From Elusimicrobiota bacterium (GTDB lineage Bacteria; Elusimicrobiota; Elusimicrobia; UBA1565): a DNA stretch of 31,750 nt. Location: assembly GCA_043819795.1 (NCBI GenBank), contig JBDREN010000133.1, positions 1-31,750 of the forward strand, in the 5' to 3' direction. A program made the position numbers and the translations under genes. The notes beneath the pieces are model-generated. The model was not told where the DNA came from and did no database searches. It saw nothing but the letters and a program-made list of their open reading frames with translations. Shown piece after piece: positions 1 through 23,669 of the stretch. Each line of letters opens with the position of its first letter. Positions within the stretch are counted from its first letter, which is position 1.

Positions 1-64
1 CTCGCGCTACTGTCGGCCCGCCTTCCGGAACGGAAGCGCGGGTCGGCTGAAGCGATTGTTATGT
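1..64 (-). repeat. attC: attC site of cassette 3 (truncated by window edge)
   Basis: Inverse core ACATAAC (minus strand, 64-58) contains the TAA stop of ORF 59-478 and is complementary to GTTATGT at the cassette start (500-494). Bases 1-54 are identical to 1158-1211 of the cassette 1 attC. Confidence 0.9.
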
Positions 65-478
65 GCCACGATTGTTTATGGATGAAAATCGTAACTGCAA
101 AACCCTCGCTGTCACTGCCCCGATAACCCCCGCAACAGCAAGGGCCCCTGGCGCAGCTCGAAATGCAAATAGCGCAAAACATGCGCCAGCAAGATACAGC
201 ACCCATGCTACGAGAGATCGTTGCCGGGGAGCCATCATAGTCCCCAAGAGAACAACAAGAATTGCGGCCACACCTGCCCCGATGAGGACTGGCAGCTTGT
301 TGACCCAAGGCACATCGCACATGCCTGAAATCACCGTTCCGCCGGGACACCAAGATGTCAGCGAATTGAATATTCCTATAGCCAGGAACAAAGCAATATA
401 AAATCCGATTACGGCACTCGGTAAAATGAGAATCCATCGAACTCCTGCGATTACCGTTGCCGTTTTGCTTTGTCTCAT
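59..478 (-). CDS. Integron cassette 3: hypothetical membrane protein (~4 TM helices)
   Basis: 139-aa ORF filling the cassette between attC sites; four hydrophobic stretches; stop lies in the inverse core. Confidence 0.85.
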   Translation of the reverse strand: MRQSKTATVIAGVRWILILPSAVIGFYIALFLAIGIFNSLTSWCPGGTVISGMCDVPWVNKLPVLIGAGVAAILVVLLGTMMAPRQRSLVAWVLYLAGACFALFAFRAAPGALAVAGVIGAVTARVLQLRFSSINNRGT

Positions 479-493
479 GATGCGTTTATGTGC

Positions 494-567
494 ACATAAC
501 GCTTACGCTCAGCCGCGCGCGCTCTATACACCCTGAGGCGCGCGGCGGCTGAAGCGCTTAGTTAGCA
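494..567 (-). repeat. attC: attC site of cassette 2 (74 bp)
   Basis: Inverse core TGCTAAC (567-561) ... core GTTATGT (500-494); internal imperfect palindrome CGCTCAGCCG...CGGCTGAAGCG. The inverse core matches GTTAGCA at the cassette 2 start. Confidence 0.9.
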
Positions 568-1127
568 GGCCGGTATCCATACACTCTCAAGTCTTCCGAG
601 CCGTCCCTCTTAATTAATCCCTCCTCTTGCAGTGGCTCCGGAGCATTGATTTTGTCCGCCGTGTATTGTGACATTCGAATGACAGATCCGTCCGTATCCT
701 TCATCTTGAATAGGTGATCAGCAATTAATACCGCCGCCCCAACGATTTGAAACTGCTTCGTCGGACCGAAAAAGTCGCCTCCCATGCTTCCTGTGCCGAG
801 AACTATCCTTACCTCCATCATAACATCCGCGTCGTTCCCTGAAGGCGGCGCAAGCGACTTCAGAATTGCACACGCGGCGTCGAACGCTGCCTGCGCGTGG
901 CTGGGGTCGTCGCCTGCCCCCTGCCAAAACGCCACGACCGTATCACCGTCAAATCGAACAATCCTCCCAGAATGTTGCTCGATCGCCGCAGAAACTCTCT
1001 CGAGATAAGTCTTCAAGCTCCCCAATGATTCCTGAGGAGGAAGAATCTCAGTCATAGCGACGCTGTTAACGATTCCACTACGGAAAACCGTGCCTTCGCC
1101 TGTGAACTTCTCAATCTTGCCTTTCAT
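558..1127 (-). CDS. Integron cassette 2: class III adenylate/guanylate cyclase-like domain protein, catalytically degenerate
   Basis: Motifs AIEQHSGRIVRFDGDTVVAFW, HAQAAFDAA, VRIVLGTG, IVGAAVLIADHL and IRMSQYT follow the class III cyclase fold; the first Asp and the Asn/Arg pair are replaced. Confidence 0.8.
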   Translation of the reverse strand: MKGKIEKFTGEGTVFRSGIVNSVAMTEILPPQESLGSLKTYLERVSAAIEQHSGRIVRFDGDTVVAFWQGAGDDPSHAQAAFDAACAILKSLAPPSGNDADVMMEVRIVLGTGSMGGDFFGPTKQFQIVGAAVLIADHLFKMKDTDGSVIRMSQYTADKINAPEPLQEEGLIKRDGSEDLRVYGYRPAN

Positions 1128-1133
1128 GGGTCC

Positions 1134-1221
1134 TGCTAACGGATGTCGGTCAGCCGCCTCGCGCTACTGTCGGCCCGCCTTCCGGAACGGAAGCGCGGGT
1201 CGGCTGAAGCGCGGGTTAGGC
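1134..1221 (-). repeat. attC: attC site of cassette 1 (88 bp)
   Basis: Inverse core GCCTAAC (1221-1215, holds the TAA stop) ... core GTTAGCA (1140-1134); inner TCAGCCG/CGGCTGA palindrome. Confidence 0.92.
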
Positions 1222-1671
1222 GTCACCCAGTCCAGTGATATCCCGGCACTCATCTGGCGGAAAGTCCTTCGCTTCCGCATCGGCTAGGACGGGAGGATGC
1301 CCCGGCGGATGAACAGGCTTCCCGGCAGTGCCTCCCGACCCCTGCCCGCTCCCTGCGCCATAGAATTTGTCAACAGCGCGAAGCAGTTGTGATCGCGGTG
1401 CAACAAAGGGTTCAACATCAAGACCGGATATGCGCTTCAATTCGTTGATCAGCCTCGCGTCTTGGGGGGAAACCATCGCGATGGCCAGAGTATTGCCGTC
1501 ACGGAAGAGCGGAAACACCTCATGTTCGCGTGCGAACTGTGCTGGGACGATATCACGCAGGTTCTGATTTTCCTCCGCTTTCAGCACCTGGTTCTGCGCT
1601 GAAGCATATGGAATCCCCAGCTGTTTGCTGAGCGCAGAAGCAGACGACTCCTCGTTCATCCCGTCATTCAT
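1216..1671 (-). CDS. Integron cassette 1: stand-alone GspE/PilB N-terminal (T2SSE_N/MshEN-family) domain protein
   Basis: LSKQLGIPY...IVPAQFAREHEVFPLFRDGNTLAIAMVSPQD...LKRISGLDVEPFVA...LLRAVDKFYG is the typical pattern; AGGAGG RBS; no ATPase domain. Confidence 0.85.
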   Translation of the reverse strand: MNDGMNEESSASALSKQLGIPYASAQNQVLKAEENQNLRDIVPAQFAREHEVFPLFRDGNTLAIAMVSPQDARLINELKRISGLDVEPFVAPRSQLLRAVDKFYGAGSGQGSGGTAGKPVHPPGHPPVLADAEAKDFPPDECRDITGLGDA

Positions 1672-1712
1672 CGGACCTCCTCCTGCATGATACTATTCCA
1701 CATTCATTGGAC

Positions 1713-1745
1713 GCCTAACGTATGAGTCTATTGACCAGTATAGGG
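1713..1745 (-). other. attI: attI site (crossover G|TT at 1719/1718)
   Basis: Minus-strand GTTAGGCGTC at 1719-1710 is the exact complement of GACGCCTAAC at the end of cassette 1. No attC hairpin precedes it, and it lies between the intI stop and the first cassette. The outer boundary is approximate. Confidence 0.8.
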
Positions 1746-1765
1746 CCAGTTCGGGAAATTGGCGA
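1737..1765 (-). promoter_or_regulatory. Candidate cassette promoter Pc
   Basis: TCGCCA-N17-TATACT on the minus strand, pointing into attI and the cassettes. Confidence 0.55.
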
Positions 1766-1851
1766 GGGGAAATTTCTGGCGGCGGCGGCGGACTTTCTTG
1801 TGGTGGCCGGTCCCCGGGATTCTGGCATACGCTGCATGGCTGGTCAGTGTA

Positions 1852-3183
1852 TCACGCCTGGCCCGTTTCCGCTTCCGGCCCGAGCCCGATCCGGTCGGCC
1901 GGGCTCTTGACGCCGCGGCCGCCCCGATTGAGGACATGGGTGTAGACCATGGTGGTGCTCACGTCGCTGTGCCCGAGCAGCTCCTGGACGGTCCGGATGT
2001 CGTGGCCGTCCTCCAGCAGATGGGTGGCGAAGGAATGTCTGAGCGTGTGGCAGCTCGCCGGCTTGGCTATGCCCGCCCGGACGCGCGCTTCCTTAAAAGC
2101 GCGCTGCAGGACCGACTCGTTGAGGTGGTGCCTGCGGCGTTCCCCGGAGATCCTGTCGGTGTAGTGGCTCGTCGCCGGGAAGACCCATTGCCAGCCCCAT
2201 TCTTGGGAGGCGTTGGGGTATTTCCGCGCGAGGGCGTCGGGCAGGGTGACGCGTCCCAGGCCCCTGGCGACGTCCTTGCCGTGCTGCCGCCGGACCGCCT
2301 CCAGGTGCCGCTCGAGCGGCTCCCGCGCCCCCGCGGGCAGCATGGTGTGGCGGTCCTTATTGCCCTTGCCGGCCCGGACCATCAGCTGATTCTGCCCGAA
2401 ATCCACGTCCTTCACGCGTAGGCTACAGCATTCGAGCAGGCGCAGGCCGGCCCCGTACAGGAGGGTCGCCATCAGGCGAGGGGTCCCGGTCATGCGGCCC
2501 ACCACGCGTCTTACCTCGTCGCGGCTGAGGACGATCGGGAGCCTTCGGGGCCTTTTTGCCCGGACCATGCCCTCCATGAGGCCGATCTTCCTGCCCAGGA
2601 CTTGCTCATAGAGGAACAGCAGCGCGTTCAGGGCCTGGTTCTGGGTGGAGGCGCTGACGCCCGCGTCGCTGGCGAGCCCGGAGAGGAACCGTTTGATCTC
2701 GGCTTCGTCCAGGGACTCCGGCTTCGCATCGCCTTGGCGCCGGAGGAACCGGTCGGCCCAGCTGACATAGGCTTTTTCCGTCCTGGGGCTGTAATGCCGG
2801 GCGCGGACGGCCCGGCGGAGCCTCTCCAGCAGGCGCGTTCGCGAAGAGGGGGGGCTCGGCGCGGGGAGGGCCGTCCGCGGGGCTCCCGGTGCCCGAAGCG
2901 CCGGGTCCAGATCGACGGGTTCTCCTGAGAAAAGGCGGAGCAGGTGGGCGACCATCCGTCCGCCGCCGGGCACGGTCCAGTGCATCTGCTCGGGATGCCA
3001 CCAGCGGCCGGCCACGGTCCTGATCTTCTCCAAGTGTCCGGGAGAATAGGGCAGTTGCACGATGATCCGGCCCTCCTCGCCCGGCTGTAGCCTGATCCGG
3101 CGGGGCGGCCTCAACGCCGCCTGCCGTTGGGCGGAGGCCCGCTCGATTTTCCGGCTTTCTCCGGCCGCTCTTGGCGTTTCCAT
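1852..3183 (-). CDS. intI: Integron integrase with N-terminal extension
   Basis: [39 protein letters not shown], IntI-specific insert [23 protein letters not shown]...[31 protein letters not shown]. The ATG at 3183 has an AGGGGG RBS. Confidence 0.97.
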
Positions 3184-3278
3184 GGCTGTACCCCCTACCA
3201 GCCATACGAGCGGGAGGCCGGTTGAGTTCCCTCCCGGCACCGGCCCGCGCCCGTCCTCTCCGGCACTTCTTGGACGAT

Positions 3279-3580: not shown

Positions 3581-4523
3581 TTGGCCGCGCATTCCGGGGC
3601 TTGCGGATCCGGCCCGACGCGCTTGAGCGGGGCGCGGGCGGGGCCGCGATGGCGGGCCGGCCGGACGATCTCCAGCCTGGATTCCGCGCGGACTTCGCCC
3701 GCGGAATCGGGCTGGAGGCCGGCCGGATTCGCGGAGGTCCCGGGCCTTTGCGGACCGGTCTCGGAGCGAATCTTGGCCCGGTTCGTCTCATTGTTGGGCC
3801 CATAGCTCCAGCCTCATTTTCGTCGCCGGCCCATCCGGCCTCTTCTTGCTCGTTTCTGCTGGCTTTACCAGGAACTCTCCCACCCGCTTCGATCCATCCA
3901 GCAATGGATTCGCGTCCCAACCCCTCTCCCGCTACGAACTGTCTGGTGGGTGGTGTGCGGTAGAGGGGTTGGGACGGCAGCGGGTGGGAAATGGGGGATG
4001 GACTTGGGGGAAACTGCGGGAGAAACTCGGGCGCTCCGAGGCCCGGGATCCATTCCACGATCGGGCTTGGCCGCGCATCCGGGGGCCTGCGGATGCGGCC
4101 CGACGCGCTTGAGCGGGGCCCGGGCGGGGCCGCGATGGCGGGCTGGCCGGACGATCTTCAGCCGGGATTTCGCGCGGCCTTTGCCCGCGGAATCGGGCGG
4201 GAGGCCGGGCGGATTCGCGGAGGTCCCGGGCCTGTGCGGACCGGTCTCGGGGCGGGTCTTGGCCCGGTTCGACTCATCGCCGGCCCCGTAGCTCCAGCGT
4301 CATTTTTCGAACCCGGGCGACGGCCTTCTGAGCAATCGGATATCATGGCTATTGTTGAACATCTCCCACCCGCCTCGATCCGGCCAGCGCCGGATTCGTG
4401 TCCCAACCACTCTCCCGCTACGAACGGTGTGGTGGGGGGGGGGCGGGAGAGGGGGTGGGGCCGCGGCGGGTGGGAAATGAGGGATGGACTTGGTGGGAAC
4501 TGGGGGGAAACTCGGGCGCTCTG
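3581..4523. repeat. Imperfect tandem duplication, ~486-bp period (3581-~4038 and 4067-~4523)
   Basis: Both copies start TTGGCCGCGCAT..., share long blocks (GGCCCGACGCGCTTGAGCGGGGC, GGATTCGCGGAGGTCCCGGGCCT, TCTCCCGCTACGAAC) and end GAAACTCGGGCGCTC. Confidence 0.9.
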
Positions 4524-5442
4524 CGGCACGGTTTCTATCCCGCGGTCGGACTGAGCCGGGCGCGGAAATCGCCCTTGACGCGGGGACTTCTCAGCCCGCA
4601 GCGGCCGGCAGACAGGCCCCTCTCCTGGCCGAAATCCGGGATGAAGCCTGCGGGAAATCCCGCGGCCCCGCTGCGATGTGGCGCGTGTGGGTGCGGGGCT
4701 GCCGGGCTGTCTCCGGGCTCCGGACCGCGGCTTGGCGCGCGCAGAATTGCCTCTCCCAAGTATATCTTGGAGCGGCGGCGAGCAGGGTGATCGCTGGGAA
4801 ACTGCCGCGGAATTCCCGCTTCGGATCGGCTCAGGGGCCATCTTAATGCCGGATATGGATGTTAGCTCGCGTGTTAGCCGGAGCTACCTTCCAAGCTAAC
4901 GCCCGGGACGCCAGAGGTCCGTGACAATGTGGCGCGATTCCCAGCGCTTTTCTCGTCCACCTCTCACCCTGCGATGCAGGGTTCGCGCCCCGACCCCGCC
5001 CCCGCAACGACTGCATGCGAGGCCGGGGTCGGGGCGGTGGTGGACGAGACAGAGGGGGAATCATTCTGGGGGTTTGGAGTGGAAAAAAACGACAAAGGAC
5101 AACGGCAACTGGACCTCAATCTAGATGAATGCGAGCTGAAACTTGACCGACTGTATGAATGCCGCGGCGCCCTTGGGCGGGGGCGATCAACCGCTCGCAG
5201 CGGCATCGCCCACCATGCGTTGCGCAGCCCGAACTCTCGACATCTTCCGCGCAATTCTTTCCGGTATTGGCGGCTCCATGACCTCCAGCCAGGGGGGGCT
5301 GCAAGGTCAAGGGCGCGGGATCGGCGGGCGGCAATTCAGCGGGATGATCCTGAAACGAGGCGCGATATCTCCCAGGTGGCCGGCACACTTTTCGAAATCT
5401 CAGAGCGAATCTACTCAGCTGAAACCCAAATCCGGCAATTCG

Positions 5443-6287: not shown

Positions 6288-6494
6288 ATGGAGCGCCTCC
6301 TGACCGTCGATCAGCTCGCCGACCGGCTTCAAGTGAAGCCGCGGACGATCTATCAATGGGTCCACGAGCGCTATATCCCGACGGTCAAGCTCGGGAGCCT
6401 GGTCCGGTTCAGCCCGGCCCGGGTCTCGGAATGGCTGGAGAAGCGGGAAGTGCCGGGACGGGTAAGACGGAGCCTGGCGGTCGATATCGAATAG
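6288..6494 (+). CDS. Excisionase-family HTH protein (Xis/HTH_17)
   Basis: LLTVDQLADRLQVKPRTIYQWVHERYIPTVKLGSLVRF; 68 aa; next to an integrase. Confidence 0.9.
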   Translation: MERLLTVDQLADRLQVKPRTIYQWVHERYIPTVKLGSLVRFSPARVSEWLEKREVPGRVRRSLAVDIE

Positions 6495-6551: not shown

Positions 6552-7577
6552 TCAGAACCGCAGCCTTTCAACGGCTGATTTCAAGAAGTCCGGCGCCAGG
6601 TGCGCGTAGATCTCGGTCGTCTTGATATCCGCGTGGCCGAGGAGCTTGGCAACGGTATAGAGGTCCGCTCCCCGCATCACGAGGTGGCTCGCGAAGGTAT
6701 GGCGCAGGGCGTGGAGATGGCCGGGGATCTTCAGCTCTTTGAGCAGGGCCTTGAACTGGTGGGTCAGGTGGTCGGCGCAGAGGGGCCCGCCGTTTCCGTG
6801 CGTGAAGATGAAGCCCGGGGTTTTGGCGGAGGCTTTCCTCATGGACTTGAAGGCCTGGAGCGCGGCGGCGTTCAGCGGGATGTGACGGACCTCGTAGTCC
6901 TTGGGGCGCCAGCCCTCCTTGGCCTGGACGATGAGTAGCCGGCGGCCGAGGTCCACGTCGTCCCAGGTAAGGTGCAGCAGCTCCTCGCGGCGCAGGCCGG
7001 TGTTGACCAGGATCTGGACCATGGCCTTGAGCTGGCCTTGGGCGGCATTGAGAATCCGGGACACCTCCTTCTTCGCGAAGAACCGGGCCTGGCGCTTGGG
7101 CTCCTTGAACTTCTTGACGGCCTGGGCCGGGCTCTTGGGGAGGAATCCCCACTCCACGCCTCGGTTGAAGAGGGCCTTGATGATGGCCAGCTCCCGGTTG
7201 ACCGTGGAGGGCTTGGCCCCTTCCTCGCGGCGGTGGTTCTTGAACTTCTCGATCTGGAAGTTGGTGATGTTCTTGAGGCGGTCGGAGCCGATGAACTCCC
7301 TGAACTTGGCCAGGACCTTGACGTTCAAGAGATGCGACTCGGTGGTGGCGTGGGCCTTGGAGTGCTTGAGATACTCCGCTATGAGGTGCTCCAGCCGCTT
7401 GTCGGACTGGGTGAAGCCGATCTCGCGGCGCTCGATCTTGACCCGGACGTCGGAGAGGGCCAGCTCGGCCAGGCGCTTGGAGCGGCCGAGCTTCTTGCGG
7501 ACCCGGCGGCCCTCCACCGCGTAGTCCATGTACCAGGACAAACCCTTCTTGCCTTTGCGCTGATAGATGCGGGCCAT
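6552..7577 (-). CDS. Phage-type tyrosine recombinase/integrase
   Basis: N-terminal arm-binding-like WYMDYAVEGRRVRKK; TGLRREE, HALRHTFASHL, LLGHADIKTTEIYAHL catalytic motifs intact. Confidence 0.95.
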   Translation of the reverse strand: MARIYQRKGKKGLSWYMDYAVEGRRVRKKLGRSKRLAELALSDVRVKIERREIGFTQSDKRLEHLIAEYLKHSKAHATTESHLLNVKVLAKFREFIGSDRLKNITNFQIEKFKNHRREEGAKPSTVNRELAIIKALFNRGVEWGFLPKSPAQAVKKFKEPKRQARFFAKKEVSRILNAAQGQLKAMVQILVNTGLRREELLHLTWDDVDLGRRLLIVQAKEGWRPKDYEVRHIPLNAAALQAFKSMRKASAKTPGFIFTHGNGGPLCADHLTHQFKALLKELKIPGHLHALRHTFASHLVMRGADLYTVAKLLGHADIKTTEIYAHLAPDFLKSAVERLRF

Positions 7578-7721
7578 CTGTCTTCTACCCCTGTTTCACC
7601 GTGGAAGGCCGACTCCTGAGCGCGTCGCCGCCTCCGCCCTTGCCGGGCCTCCCTCCGCGATATGGGCGGGTCTCGATGTGCGGCGAGGCGCCCGCTGCCC
7701 CGCGGGGCTCCTCCATTATGG

Positions 7722-8584
7722 GTCGAGTAGGGCGATGGCGCATCCACACGGAGTACTGGTCAATTTGACTCACCTTGCAACCGTGAGCCGCGCATTGTCG
7801 TTTAAGCGCCTGCGCCAGGGCGCCCAGGTCCGCTGATGTTTCCATCGCCCCCTCTAAGATTCCGTACGTCGGGTTTTCCCCGATACGGCTCCAAACTCAG
7901 GCTCACCCGATCAGACAAGCCCTTCCCCTCGCGGGTTTGACCTGTCCTTCGTCCGCCTACCCACGCACACCGCGCATACTACTGCCCGTGTGTTAGCTCC
8001 CCTCAAGGAGGAGCACTCGGGCACGCCCATGCGCTCTCGACAGACACCTGAGTCCAGGGGCCCTTGGCTCCGGTCCGGGTTATGCTATCCCGGTCCATCC
8101 ACGCTTACTACGGCCCCATCCGCCAGTCTCGGACGCTCCCCGCGACTTCCCGCATTACGGTTATACGTGGGGTCTTCTTGTCGCCGAGACCTTCCCTACT
8201 TTCATCGTCATGCTTTGAGTACGTGCCGCTCCCCCTACACCGACGGACCCGCTGCTTCTCGCCTGTTGCTGTTACCGCAGCGGTCACAGGCTCCCGCGAT
8301 TTGTGAGCGCGTCGCCGTCCGCAATCCCTGCCTCTACCAGCAATTCCCGGCAGGAGTGCCATTTCGATGCTGCAGGATTCGCTTTATGCTACGGCTCGCA
8401 CCTCCGCCTCGCACCCTTGGCTGGTTACGACCCTATTCAGGGCCTTCGAGGTACTTTGTCATCTCCGCTTTTGGCCGTCGGGATCGCTCCCAATGGTTGG
8501 AGACCAGGCTTGATGGCCGAACAGGCAATCTACCATCATCAGAACTTCCATCCGACTAGCAACGACGACTGAGTGAGGCTGCAC
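7722..8584 (-). mobile_element. ORF-less group II intron (IIB-like), 863 nt
   Basis: 5' end GTGCAG (8584); D5 GAGCCGTATCGGGGAAAACCCGACGTACGGAATC (7891-7858, AGC triad); D6 stem with bulged A at 7728 and 3' end ...CTACTCGAC (7722); short D4 closed by ACTCAGG/CCTGAGT; EBS1 CACAAA (8305-8300) and EBS2 AATGGCAC (8363-8356) complementary to the 5' exon. Confidence 0.93.
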
Positions 8585-8645
8585 CACAAAAATGGCACAA
8601 ATTTCGGAGCCCGTTTCGGCGCTCCAGCCGCTGCCAGCGGCCGCC

Positions 8646-10196
8646 TTACTTGGATCTCCCCGGAGGCGGGATGCGCAGACCCGGCGGGCCCTCCCCGTCC
8701 GGTCCGGACGCCTTCTGAACGCCCGGAGGCCCCTCGCCGTCTTGCCCCTTGCCGGGCACGCAGCCGTCGTCGATCACCCCGTCGCAGTCGTTGTCGAGCC
8801 CGTCATAGCACGTCTCTTCCGCGCCGGGATGGACCGCCGGGGCCGAATCGTCGCAGTCGTCGACGCACGCGAACGAGCCGTCGCCGTCCGCGTCATCGAT
8901 CGCGCCGCAGCCGCAGACGGCCGGCGCGATCTTCCCGGCGTCGGCCGGGCACTGGTCGAAGCAGTCCGGCGTCAGGTCGCCGTCCGAGTCGGCGTCCGCC
9001 GCGCCGCAGCCGCAGGCCCCGGCCCGCGTCTTGCCCGGGTCGCCGGGGCAGTCGTCGATGCAGTCCGGCGCCGCGTCCCCGTCCGAGTCGGTGTCCGCCA
9101 CGCCGCAGCCGCAGGCTCCCGGCTCGGTCTTGGCGGGGTCGTCCGGACACAGGTCGCTGCAGTCCTCCGCCGCATCAGTCACGCCGACGGTGACGGAATC
9201 CGGCCGGGAATCGAACTCGCCGTCACTGACGACGAGCTGATAGTAGTGGACGCCGATATCGGCCTCGGTGTAGCTCAAGGCTGGAGCGGCCTCGGCGGCG
9301 ATCTTCTCTTCCTCCTCCAGGACGCCGTCATTGTCCAGGTCCTCATACCACGCATACGCGAGAGACTCTCCCTCCGGGTCATAAGAAGCGGCTCCGTCGA
9401 GGACGGCACCCTCGTTCCAAGCGGCGAGCAGATCGGACCCGGCGTCCGCGACCGGCGCCCTGTTCGGAGACGCGCTTTCCGCCATTTCCTCCGCCGCCCT
9501 CGCAACGTTCGAAAGCCTAACCTCGTCCATCACTCCGTGGAAATACCTGGCCCCATATCCATCATATCCTATGAGCAAAGAGGTCCAGGAGCTCAAGTTA
9601 TAATCAAGCGGAGCAGAAAAGCTCCTGTCCAATACCCCGTCTATGTACGACAGCACCTGCTTTCCTGAGCCGTCATACACGACGGCAATATGCGTCCATA
9701 CGTCCTCGCTGACCCACCCGCTTGAGGGGAAATGGGAGAAACCTCCCCCCTCTTTAATCAAATAGAGAGAGGGCCTCCTGTCGCTGACGAGAAGCCACTG
9801 GTACGCATGGTTATCATGTCTTCCCACTAAACCCGGCCAAGTGGCGGTGGGCTTCCGGTTGATCCAGACCTCAATCGTGAAACTGCCGTTGATGCCGAAA
9901 TCCAGGCTGGGGTCATGCGGAACCTCGACCTTGTCGTTGACCCCATCGAATGCGAGCGCGGAGCCGAACATGCCGGTCGTCCAGGTCGCCCCGAGGATCG
10001 TCCCATGGTTCCCGTTCGGGCTCTCGTCATGGGCGATATTTCCCGATTCCTCGTCGAAGTGCCATAGCCCGACGGTATGCTCATCGACACTCAGCCGGGC
10101 CGCCCTCGCCTCGACACAAAAGGCCGTGGCCGCCGCAATCAAGAACACGGCCGCCGCCGAACACCTCACAACTGCACGGACCCGAACGTTCTCCAT
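8646..10196 (-). CDS. Secreted protein: signal peptide, LamG-like jellyroll, PKD-like domain, thrombospondin type 3-like and MopE-like Asp/Cys repeats
   Basis: VGLWHFDE...FTIEVWI...WTHIAVVYDG...FHGVMDEVRLSN; NRAPVADAGSD...LDGAASYDPEG; repeats DxDGDxxPDCxDxCP; DCDD...HPGAEETCYDGLDNDCDGVID. GGAGGAG RBS before ATG 10196. Confidence 0.9.
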   Translation of the reverse strand: MENVRVRAVVRCSAAAVFLIAAATAFCVEARAARLSVDEHTVGLWHFDEESGNIAHDESPNGNHGTILGATWTTGMFGSALAFDGVNDKVEVPHDPSLDFGINGSFTIEVWINRKPTATWPGLVGRHDNHAYQWLLVSDRRPSLYLIKEGGGFSHFPSSGWVSEDVWTHIAVVYDGSGKQVLSYIDGVLDRSFSAPLDYNLSSWTSLLIGYDGYGARYFHGVMDEVRLSNVARAAEEMAESASPNRAPVADAGSDLLAAWNEGAVLDGAASYDPEGESLAYAWYEDLDNDGVLEEEEKIAAEAAPALSYTEADIGVHYYQLVVSDGEFDSRPDSVTVGVTDAAEDCSDLCPDDPAKTEPGACGCGVADTDSDGDAAPDCIDDCPGDPGKTRAGACGCGAADADSDGDLTPDCFDQCPADAGKIAPAVCGCGAIDDADGDGSFACVDDCDDSAPAVHPGAEETCYDGLDNDCDGVIDDGCVPGKGQDGEGPPGVQKASGPDGEGPPGLRIPPPGRSK

Positions 10197-11996: not shown

Positions 11997-12018
11997 CGAG
12001 GATTCGCCTCTTATTTGG

Positions 12019-12037
12019 TCCGGGTACCAGTGGCGCG
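12019..12037 (-). repeat. 19-bp duplicate of the tRNA-Glu 3' end and trailer
   Basis: TCCGGGTACCAGTGGCGCG occurs at 12019-12037 and 12083-12101. Confidence 0.85.
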
Positions 12038-12094
12038 CACCAAGCCTGTAATTCAAAGGACCGGCACTCGCCCGTAGTTCGCTCCGGGTACCAG

Positions 12095-12168
12095 TGGCGC
12101 GTACGGGATTTGAACCCGTGATCTCCGCCTTGAGAGGGCGGCGTCCTAGGCCACTAGACGAACGCGCC
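12095..12168 (-). tRNA. tRNA-Glu (anticodon CTC), CCA not encoded
   Basis: GGCGCGT/ACGCGCC acceptor stem, CCGCC-CTCTCAA-GGCGG anticodon arm, GGTTCAAATCC T arm. Confidence 0.97.
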
Positions 12169-22360: not shown

Positions 22361-22432
22361 AGCCGACGGGGAGATTCGAACTCCCGACCTACCGCTTACA
22401 AGGCGGTTGCTCTACCACTGAGCTACGTCGGC
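22361..22432 (-). tRNA. tRNA-Thr (anticodon TGT), CCA not encoded
   Basis: GCCGACG/CGTCGGC acceptor stem, AGCTCAGTGGTAGAGC D arm, ACCGC-CTTGTAA-GCGGT anticodon arm, GTTCGAATC T loop. Confidence 0.97.
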
Positions 22433-23669
22433 GTAACGCTATATTTTGGCTGATTTCTCCAGTTAAATCTAGTGGCACCATTTCGGAACGTTCTTGCCGT
22501 TTCGTGCCAAGTGTCCAAAAAGTGTCCACTTTAGGTCCATTTAAATCCACTTCCGCACCAACCGGTCCCGCTGCGCACAAGCGGTCCATGGCCCGGCCGT
22601 ACTTCTCGACCGCCTGCCTTTTGTGGTCCGGCGACAGGTGTCCGTAGCGCTTGTCCACCATCTCGGCCGTGGTGTGGCCCACCACTTCCGCGACCGTCTT
22701 GAGCCCCACGCCGCTCATGAGCATGTAGGAGATCGCCGTGTGCCGCAGGTCATGGAACCGGAAGTCCGTGATCCCAACCAGGCGCAGGCCCCGCATGAAG
22801 GCCGTGCGCACGTCGCGCAGCTTGCCTCCTTGCCGGCTGTTCATGAAGACGTAGTCGCCCTTGCGCGGCATCGAGGACAGAAGCTCCCTGGCCCGCGCGG
22901 GCAAGGCCACCTGGTCCGGCTCCTTCTTCTTCGTGTGCGTGAAATAGGCGAAGCCGTTCTCCAAGTCCACGTCCTGCCAGCGCAGGCCGAGGATCTCGCC
23001 GCGCCTGCGGCCCGTATAGATCGCGAAGGTCACGACCTCCCGAACAGGAGAGCCAAGCCATGAGAGGAGCTTCCGTATCTCATCGGGCTTCAGGTACCGC
23101 TTTCGGATGAACTCGCGCTCATCAAAGAGCTTGAGGCCAACAAGGGGCCGCGTAGAGATCACCTTCCAGTCCGCTGCCTTGTTGAGGATGCGCCGAAGGC
23201 AGGAGACCTCCCGGTTCGCCTGTCCCTTGGACACGGTGCGGAAGGTGTTGCCGGCCCACTCTTTGATCCGCCGCCTGCGCCGGTCGGGAGAGGCATGCGC
23301 CTTCCCGCGGAAGGGATGCTGCTTGGGCTCCCTGATCCTGGCGGCCATGTAGCGCTCCACCTTGGCCAGGTCGATCTCATAGAGCCTGCACCGCCCGAAC
23401 GTCCGGCTCAGGCGCTTCACGTAGCCGACCTCGTGCTTCCAGCTCCGCAGCCGGCTCTTGGACCACTCCAGGTACCTCTGCGCGAACGAGGCGAAGGTCT
23501 CCCGGCTCCTCTTGCGCACGTCCAGGAACCTCCCCTCCGCGATCTGGAGCCTGCGCTTGGCGAGCACGGCGCGGGCCAGCTTCTTGCTCGGCCCGACCTT
23601 CTCGCGCACGCGCCTGCCGTTGACCCGGTAGTCGATGAACCAGTTCTCGTCCTTGCGGTAAAGGCTCAT
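22389..23669 (-). CDS. Phage-type tyrosine integrase whose ORF ends inside tRNA-Thr
   Basis: [59 protein letters not shown] stop at 22391-22389. Confidence 0.93.
   Translation of the reverse strand: MSLYRKDENWFIDYRVNGRRVREKVGPSKKLARAVLAKRRLQIAEGRFLDVRKRSRETFASFAQRYLEWSKSRLRSWKHEVGYVKRLSRTFGRCRLYEIDLAKVERYMAARIREPKQHPFRGKAHASPDRRRRRIKEWAGNTFRTVSKGQANREVSCLRRILNKAADWKVISTRPLVGLKLFDEREFIRKRYLKPDEIRKLLSWLGSPVREVVTFAIYTGRRRGEILGLRWQDVDLENGFAYFTHTKKKEPDQVALPARARELLSSMPRKGDYVFMNSRQGGKLRDVRTAFMRGLRLVGITDFRFHDLRHTAISYMLMSGVGLKTVAEVVGHTTAEMVDKRYGHLSPDHKRQAVEKYGRAMDRLCAAGPVGAEVDLNGPKVDTFWTLGTKRQERSEMVPLDLTGEISQNIALRRRSSVVEQPPCKR
22509..22528. repeat. Tandem AAGTGTCCA x2 (11-bp period), candidate integrase arm-type sites
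   Basis: Copies at 22509-22517 and 22520-22528, in an AT-rich tract about 80 bp from the tRNA 5' end. Confidence 0.6.

Follow-up and report, generated by a model that had tools for sequence, protein, structure and literature searches.

A group II intron that encodes no protein interrupts what is very probably an arm-type site of an integrase, and its exon-binding sites (EBSs) appear to be what brought it there. The favored reading, given a probability of about three in four, is that this intron is a nonautonomous group II retroelement whose EBSs are tuned to a tandem arm-type repeat present at both ends of tRNA-integrated islands. It lies in contig C133 of genome G000, the source assembly of an Elusimicrobiota bacterium (4.99 Mb in 241 contigs), and the whole stretch of 31,750 nucleotides that was analyzed is called the window. 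The core idea of the original prediction, that EBS1 and EBS2 read a putative arm-type repeat and that the intron homes to it, holds up as far as sequence comparison can carry it. The junctions behind it come from one fragmented assembly. The intron and its exons comprise the following features.

7722-8584, minus strand: ORF-less group II intron of 863 nt, IIB-type (EBS1/EBS2/EBS3), with a long domain VI.
8300-8305, minus strand: EBS1, CACAAA, pairing with IBS1 at -6 to -1, with covariation in the family alignment.
8356-8361, minus strand: EBS2, UGGCAC, directly 3' of a conserved CGAAA, pairing with -14 to -9 (the first repeat copy).
8238, minus strand: probable EBS3, a G that pairs with the +1 C of the 3' exon, with covariation in relatives.
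7858-7891, minus strand: domain V from the fold, its AGC triad and AC bulge read from the sequence.
7725-7854, minus strand: extended domain VI of about 130 nt from the fold, with a bulged A 7 nt from the 3' end.
8585-8601, minus strand: 5' exon, made of the first arm-repeat copy (IBS2) and the start of the second (IBS1), in an attR-type upstream context.
7715-7721, minus strand: 3' exon, made of the rest of the second repeat copy and a CATAAT -10-like hexamer (7720-7715), in an attL-type context.

The element at 8584-7722 is a real group II intron, ORF-less and of the IIB type; its coordinates and the lack of an ORF for a reverse transcriptase (RT) agree with what had been predicted. Read on the minus strand, it begins with GUGCAG and ends with CUCGAC. 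The 3' end (...GAC) fits the AY-end criterion of group II introns. The 5' end is one off the GUGYG consensus, and the relatives were themselves selected on a GUGCAG start; the EBS1 pairing of these relatives backs GUGCAG as the 5' end. A family profile that was built to include the window sequence matches all of 8584-7722 (E 3.7e-117). The standard Rfam model RF00029 does not report the window intron, probably because of the long domain VI, and no D1-D4 match reaches the gathering score; sub-threshold D1D4-6 and D1D4-7 matches are found at 8524-8404 and 8371-8237. There is no RT or maturase ORF in domain IV. The longest stop-free sense frame has 91 codons and lies in domain I-II, and the three ORFs that overlap the intron have no Pfam matches. 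The short domain IV is seen again, with one difference, in an independent groundwater run (X1). The intron is nonautonomous, as it has no RT ORF. The folding z-score of the whole intron (-1.58) is weak and carries no weight as evidence, and a single-sequence structure prediction (pLDDT 40) was set aside as too poor.

The targeting argument starts with the pairing between intron and exons. EBS1 (8305-8300) was predicted to lie in the loop of a CGCG/CGCG stem, and the fold agrees. Pairing was scored in the window intron and 22 relatives (795-851 nt long and 51-64% identical, among the matches listed). Both ends could be defined in 23 relatives under rules that admit short introns only; the family alignment leaves out L075 for its wrong 5' end, and five loci have no recognizable 3' end. 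The covariation that the original prediction had looked for is seen in this set at the EBS1 and EBS2 columns. At EBS1, all 23 introns form at least five of six Watson-Crick pairs with their own exon, with a mean of 5.74 versus 3.69 +/- 0.18 in shuffled pairings (n = 23). The EBS2 column, which in the family pairs at about -14 to -9, has a mean of 4.78 versus 4.01 +/- 0.13 (n = 23). The EBS3 base pairs with +1 in 19/20 relatives matched by motif; in the window intron and its two closest relatives among the matches listed, the motif did not match and EBS3 was placed by eye. The proposal that pairing runs over 14 contiguous nucleotides has to be given up: the real pairing consists of about 6 + 6 nt in two blocks, plus EBS3. 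The longer helix fails because the AA of 'AATGGCAC' is part of the family-wide CGAAA scaffold and because the junction on contig C158 has AA at -8/-7, which is unable to pair. Because the first copy of the repeat supplies IBS2 and the second supplies IBS1, the sole target is the tandem pair.

The other copies in the genome point to the same target. Besides the full copy in the window, G000 holds an intron 5' end at the end of contig C158, a 119-nt 5' fragment in C5, and intron 3' ends at the ends of contigs C8 and C9. In a tabulation of flanks of the kind that the original prediction proposed, 3/3 5' junctions and 3/3 3' junctions lie at the arm repeat: the 5' exons of C133, C5, and C158 all end in TGTGCCA-NN-TTTGTG, and the 3' exons of C133, C8, and C9 all start with CCA. 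Every junction thus falls between TGTG and CCA in the second copy of TRTGCCA-N4-TRTGCCA. The 14-nt 5' target occurs three times in the 4.99 Mb and is occupied each time, leaving no empty perfect target in G000, where IBS1 plus the +1 base occurs 119 times. The nearest empty sites are on C17, with a mismatch to EBS1, and on C154, with a degenerate second copy. The C158 junction is 92 nt after a tRNA-Ala(CGC) gene, and tRNA 3' fragments lie downstream of the 3' ends at C9 (tRNA-Ala) and C8 (tRNA-Asp). No integrase was found within the 4 kb examined near the C5 copy. The last 133 nt of the intron are identical in three copies, which, along with near-identical contigs in three sequencing runs (X1-X3), suggests recent mobility.

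Other islands of this genome carry repeats of the same period. Several tRNA-Gly island ends on C5, C52, C164, and C182 have a period-11 repeat of their own (TCGACAA x2), and the truncated C5 intron copy adjoins such a tRNA-Gly island array. No intron copy was found in G000 at this different repeat or at the repeat of the second integrase in the window. The integrases and associated features of the window are as follows.

6552-7577, minus strand: tyrosine integrase of 341 aa, lambda-Int-like (phrog_1, E 5.7e-72).
6288-6494, plus strand: excisionase-like HTH_17 gene, convergent with the integrase (PF12728, E 2e-13; phrog_66 excisionase).
22509-22528, plus strand: period-11 repeat AAGTGTCCA x2 of the second integrase, before tRNA-Thr; intron-free and not the intron's target.

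That the TRTGCCA repeat is an arm-type site is very probable from the company that it keeps: it is found at both island ends, it is associated with orthologous and viral integrases, the integrase has a lambda-Int-like fold, and an excisionase gene is its neighbor. Orthologues of the 6552-7577 integrase are present in 69 of 301 genomes of the class (E<=1e-40). Intron-free alleles with an intact repeat had been predicted beside integrases, and they exist: an intact TRTGCCA-N4-TRTGCCA lies within 1.5 kb upstream in 11 of 22 orthologue loci (50-68% identity), each after a tRNA, and upstream of none of six distant integrases. In five relatives the motif occurs 12 times, compared to once for the control. 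Eleven of these matches are at attL (on the tRNA side) or at attR (before the tRNA 3' fragment), and the remaining one is an attR-like arm without a clear tRNA fragment. The order at attL is tRNA, hairpin, repeat, and then usually the integrase; at attR it is repeat, short repeated boxes, and tRNA 3' fragment. The same motif is at both attL and attR ends in G009, G087, G090, and G185. Empty perfect targets number 20 in 12 of 110 relatives (control 0). In viral contigs there are at least 120 matches to the exact target, and among the 80 that were fetched, a tyrosine integrase is within 2 kb in 54 loci (40/63 distinct contexts), compared to 3/80 loci (2/42 contexts) for a control pattern.

The integrase itself is of the expected kind. 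Its best Foldseek match is full-length lambda Int (1z1b; 355 columns, E 4.8e-13), and residues 3-50 of the predicted structure form three strands and a helix (pLDDT 80-92), which points to a predicted N-terminal domain of the arm-binding type; Pfam gives no arm-domain match for residues 1-60. Viral relatives of the integrase (22 distant loci, 23-36% identity) were used as profile seeds only. A second integrase in the window (22389-23669), 27% identical to the first, had been credited with a repeat of the same geometry. The period of 11 is right, and the pair at 22509-22528 is matched by 0/100 shuffles; the motif is a different one and lies at the 3' end of the gene, 77 nt before tRNA-Thr.

Several other observations were made on the mobile elements of this genome. 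The ORF of the second integrase reads into tRNA-Thr (22361-23669), and its 3' end carries TGGACAC repeated with a period of 11; the distant integrases L170-L175 have similar 3' repeats. The first 3,240 nt of the window (1-3240) are integron-like. They hold an integrase at 1852-3240 (PF00589, Phage_int_SAM_4), which we take to be IntI-like, and attC-like repeats at 1-69, 535-559, and 1158-1226 that separate single ORFs. Between the integron and the excisionase gene, 3581-4561 is a direct repeat with a period of about 480 nt and 85-90% identity, noncoding in appearance. At 12004-12104, a duplicated tRNA-Glu(CTC) 3' end is followed by an attL-like hairpin with no arm repeat or integrase; this is a decayed island end. 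Another tRNA-Glu 3' fragment lies on contig C153, downstream of a group II intron 3' remnant. At least eight copies of one att-like end are found on contigs C211, C23, C80, C77, and C235; this end has a tRNA-like 3' fragment, preceded by conserved sequence of about 190 nt.

How far the arm-site habit extends beyond this genome is a separate question. A domain V pattern scan of GTDB genomes gave at least 123 stretches (L024-L146), 80 of them with full flanks; among the matches listed, just 7 of 87 domain V matches have an RT motif in the 1.6 kb upstream. An ORF-less family of about 800-860 nt with a GUGCAG start is seen, among those matches, in Acidobacteriota, Alphaproteobacteria, Planctomycetota, and others. 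Its targets are diverse, and several of those listed are domain V/VI of other introns. In a related genome, for example, an ORF-less family intron (L463/L011, G229:C60) lies inside domain V of an intron that encodes an RT. In the Verrucomicrobiia locus L041, the 3' flank of an intron remnant has 15 nt in common with window positions 8602-8617, by the arm repeat, possibly by chance.

Near-identical intron sequence is present in three runs (X1-X3), from groundwater, a biofilm, and groundwater RNA, and a relative of about 91% identity is present in a marine run (X4). Three of the four contigs reach IBS1 and stop matching at -7; the X2 contig has 230 further letters beyond IBS1, unlike the window flank. 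The RNA run X3 covers 8193-8561 of the intron, and no spliced or intron-skipping joint was found in the contigs of the four runs. The marine relative has three substitutions in or beside EBS2, which predict an IBS2 of GTGCTC. It was considered whether this relative targets a tandem TGTGCTC arm, and the idea is not supported: an integrase is near 2/42 contexts of that motif, and this same set is the control.

The original prediction expected copies at arm repeats in other genomes and metagenomes, and none was found. The junction pattern has no true match besides G000 in 400 genomes of the phylum (one match is by chance), and no arm-inserted intron was found in 100 genomes of the order. A metagenome scan gave no matches to the intron 5' end and 23 matches, none an intron, to the junction of arm and intron. 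Viral scans gave no matches to domain V or to the domain I-II motif and four matches, all by chance, to the junction pattern; the collections used for the metagenome and viral scans may omit near-identical records. The intron has no match in a plasmid BLAST. None of the 22 full-length relatives, including the closest two (63-64%), uses the arm-repeat target, among the matches listed.

These results bear on what is claimed for the lineage. EBS-guided targeting of the arm repeat in this genome stands, and a wide lineage that is specialized on arm sites does not: such a lasting lineage is not established, because no second genome has an arm insertion, the family has other targets, and the EBS2 of the X4 relative has changed. 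One could consider instead that the EBS loops of a common ORF-less family have recently drifted onto a multicopy island motif, an opportunistic and shallow retargeting with no lasting specialization. This fits the proposed mechanism and rivals the lineage claim only, and it comes close to even odds. The many unrelated targets of family members among the matches listed, several of them in domain V/VI of other introns, favor it, as do the different EBS2 of X4 and the lack of a second genome. Set against it, X4 has no listed EBS1 change and its contig ends in the same IBS1, and the pool of targets across phages is very large. Also, such repeats fragment short-read assemblies and go missing from metagenome-assembled genomes, so absence elsewhere is weak evidence.

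Assembly is a concern in the window as well. Removal of the intron rebuilds, as predicted, a perfect 10-nt repeat of period 11, with one copy intact (8592-8601) and the other split (7718-7721 and 8585-8590), 141 nt upstream of the integrase start at 7577. Such repeats occur at 1.4e-5 of genome positions, so the rebuilt one is not due to chance. The coordinates and the distance of about 140 nt are correct; the two flanks probably come from two different att ends. In the assembly, 36 pairs of contig ends share exactly 141 nt. It was therefore built with k = 141, and its graph cannot span an 863-nt repeat present in many copies. The left flank of the window intron has the attR signature, and the right flank has the attL signature and then the integrase. 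The closest orthologues of that integrase (62-68%) follow tRNA-Ala(CGC), as contig C158 does. The window junction is thus probably a hybrid, its left half derived from attR and its right half from attL, and C158 is probably the natural upstream flank of the integrase at 6552-7577. The likely true arrangement is tRNA-Ala, arm, intron, and integrase, with more copies at attR ends, and the "perfect" repeat of the window may never have existed as such. That the junction is instead a true single insertion site, or an in vivo recombinant between two intron copies, seems rather unlikely. The contig does run through the junction without a break, the rebuilt repeat is perfect over 10 nt, and the start of the C158 intron differs from the window copy at 6/97 nt; yet these differences sit in the final 97 nt of a contig, where read errors could account for them, and the att signatures of the flanks, the position of the orthologues, and the 141-nt contig ends all speak for the hybrid. 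The conclusion on targeting stands either way, since both halves are the same motif in the same register.

Retrohoming by reverse splicing is guided by EBSs. The intron, which is on the same strand as the tRNA and the integrase, would be transcribed by read-through from tRNA or cargo genes. It would then splice and retrohome by ordinary reverse splicing, with an RT lent in trans. In the available text of PMC8643678 and PMC12584367, ORF-less introns are described as able to use an RT in trans. The best RT candidate would be a three-copy RT intron (G000:C95:67965-69212, C108:43-141, and C122:17851-17949; family members L002, L461, L464, and L465), whose relatives bear a weak resemblance to the window ribozyme (E 1e-5 to 1e-7); the assembly yielded no RT-encoding sibling that is near-identical to the window intron. 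This RT intron family ends in ...ACCAAT, and the end and the next base form ATG at 7/7 3' junctions, apparently the start codons of genes. The ATG junctions recall the IIB1 clade that targets start and stop codons, as far as it is described in the available text of PMC12584367.

Insertion would destroy one arm copy at each island end. At attR, it would move the other arm copy 863 bp from the core. At attL, it would drive apart the -35 and -10 elements of the likely integrase promoter: the repeat there occupies the 17 nt from a -35-like to a -10-like hexamer, and the intron insertion point is one base before the -10-like hexamer. At this fixed register, 3-5/6 positions of the hexamer are present in 13 attL arms versus 1-2/6 in four attR arms. 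A promoter and terminator scan of 7500-8900 found nothing. A similar layout is known from KplE1/HK620, in which the tRNA is followed by attL arm sites over the intS promoter and then the integrase; in the available text of PMC2951348, the order of tRNA, attL and arm sites over the promoter, and integrase is predicted for 61.5% of tRNA-associated integrases. KplE1/HK620, as described there, has no intron and another arm sequence and integrase, and arm binding is shown in that system and inferred here.

Splicing cannot repair this damage, since it affects the DNA itself, ahead of the integrase gene. With an arm copy lost or displaced and the promoter split, an occupied island should therefore excise poorly, though both impaired excision and impaired integrase expression are inferences. 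Does the intron then ride its island or ground it? Harmless hitchhiking, in which the island still excises with its intron by means of the arm copy that is left or of another arm pair, is improbable. One copy of each repeat pair does stay intact, as do the integrase ORF and the excisionase gene, and near-identical introns in separate samples imply some means of transfer. However, attL-type and attR-type arms are both hit, the surviving copy at attR is displaced by 863 bp, and no viral contig with the insertion was found. Grounding is the more likely outcome, as both arm types are hit and splicing does not restore the DNA site. It is very improbable that the repeat serves the integrase gene only as an operator or promoter element, and that the intron targets a promoter, since the repeat that fills the 17-nt spacer at attL is found again at attR ends, where promoter hexamers are absent and no integrase follows, and since dual use of arm and promoter is documented for KplE1 in the available text of PMC2951348.

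A close parallel is with the IIC-attC introns. IIC introns recognize hairpins and are not known to have an EBS2. Members that target attC (e.g., S.ma.I2) insert, like the intron described here, into the DNA site of a tyrosine-recombinase system. Their target is the integron crossover site, whereas here it is an arm-type accessory repeat of tRNA islands; and unlike them, this intron is of the IIB type, with an AGC triad and no ORF, and reads its target by sequence pairing of EBS1 and EBS2. An IIC-attC identity was rejected on the grounds that EBS2 is present and covaries and that the junctions are in island arm repeats, the attC-like repeats of the window (1-1226) being without a copy. Insertion after a terminator, as in IIC introns, is not supported either: the terminator scan of 7500-8900 is empty, though the 5' exon is closely preceded by a GC hairpin. 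The intron works like any homing IIB-type intron, and its target logic is like that of the IIC-attC introns.

Other comparisons come from published work. The ORF-less IIB introns of Thermosynechococcus elongatus and Trichodesmium, in the available text of PMC8643678 and PMC12584367, have several near-identical copies at homing sites and RT introns elsewhere, as here; compared to those trans-mobilized introns, this one has no close RT-encoding sibling, and its target is one functional motif of a mobile element. Waldern et al. (PMC7306698) report that introns are found preferentially within or close to other mobile elements, which they may repress, and this is similar to the present case. Their survey is at the level of gene neighborhoods, and its main text never uses the words integrase, recombinase, or attachment; the intron described here has entered the cis-acting recombination site itself. 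The available text of PMC4424553 lists homing sites, terminators, and attC as the target specificities of group II introns and describes ORF-less introns as rare in bacteria. In the literature covered, which included few subscription papers, no paper was found that places a group II intron in an integrase arm site, and the integrase arm repeat as a group II intron target seems undescribed.

A stronger form of the claim is that a protein-less lineage has specialized on the arm and promoter motif of phages and tRNA islands and acts as a hyperparasite, permanently grounding prophages and islands by splitting the promoter and both arms. This is doubtful; if true, bacterial group II introns would have a fourth kind of target, and islands could be domesticated under the guidance of an RNA. 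The element belongs to an ORF-less family that is large among the matches listed and that the standard Rfam model missed here. Homing into arm repeats would give such an intron a multicopy, nonessential target that recurs across unrelated phages and islands. It would also offer a concrete mechanism, open to testing, by which a mobile element shuts down another one in its DNA, beyond the repair that splicing offers, and it bears on how islands and prophages lose their mobility.
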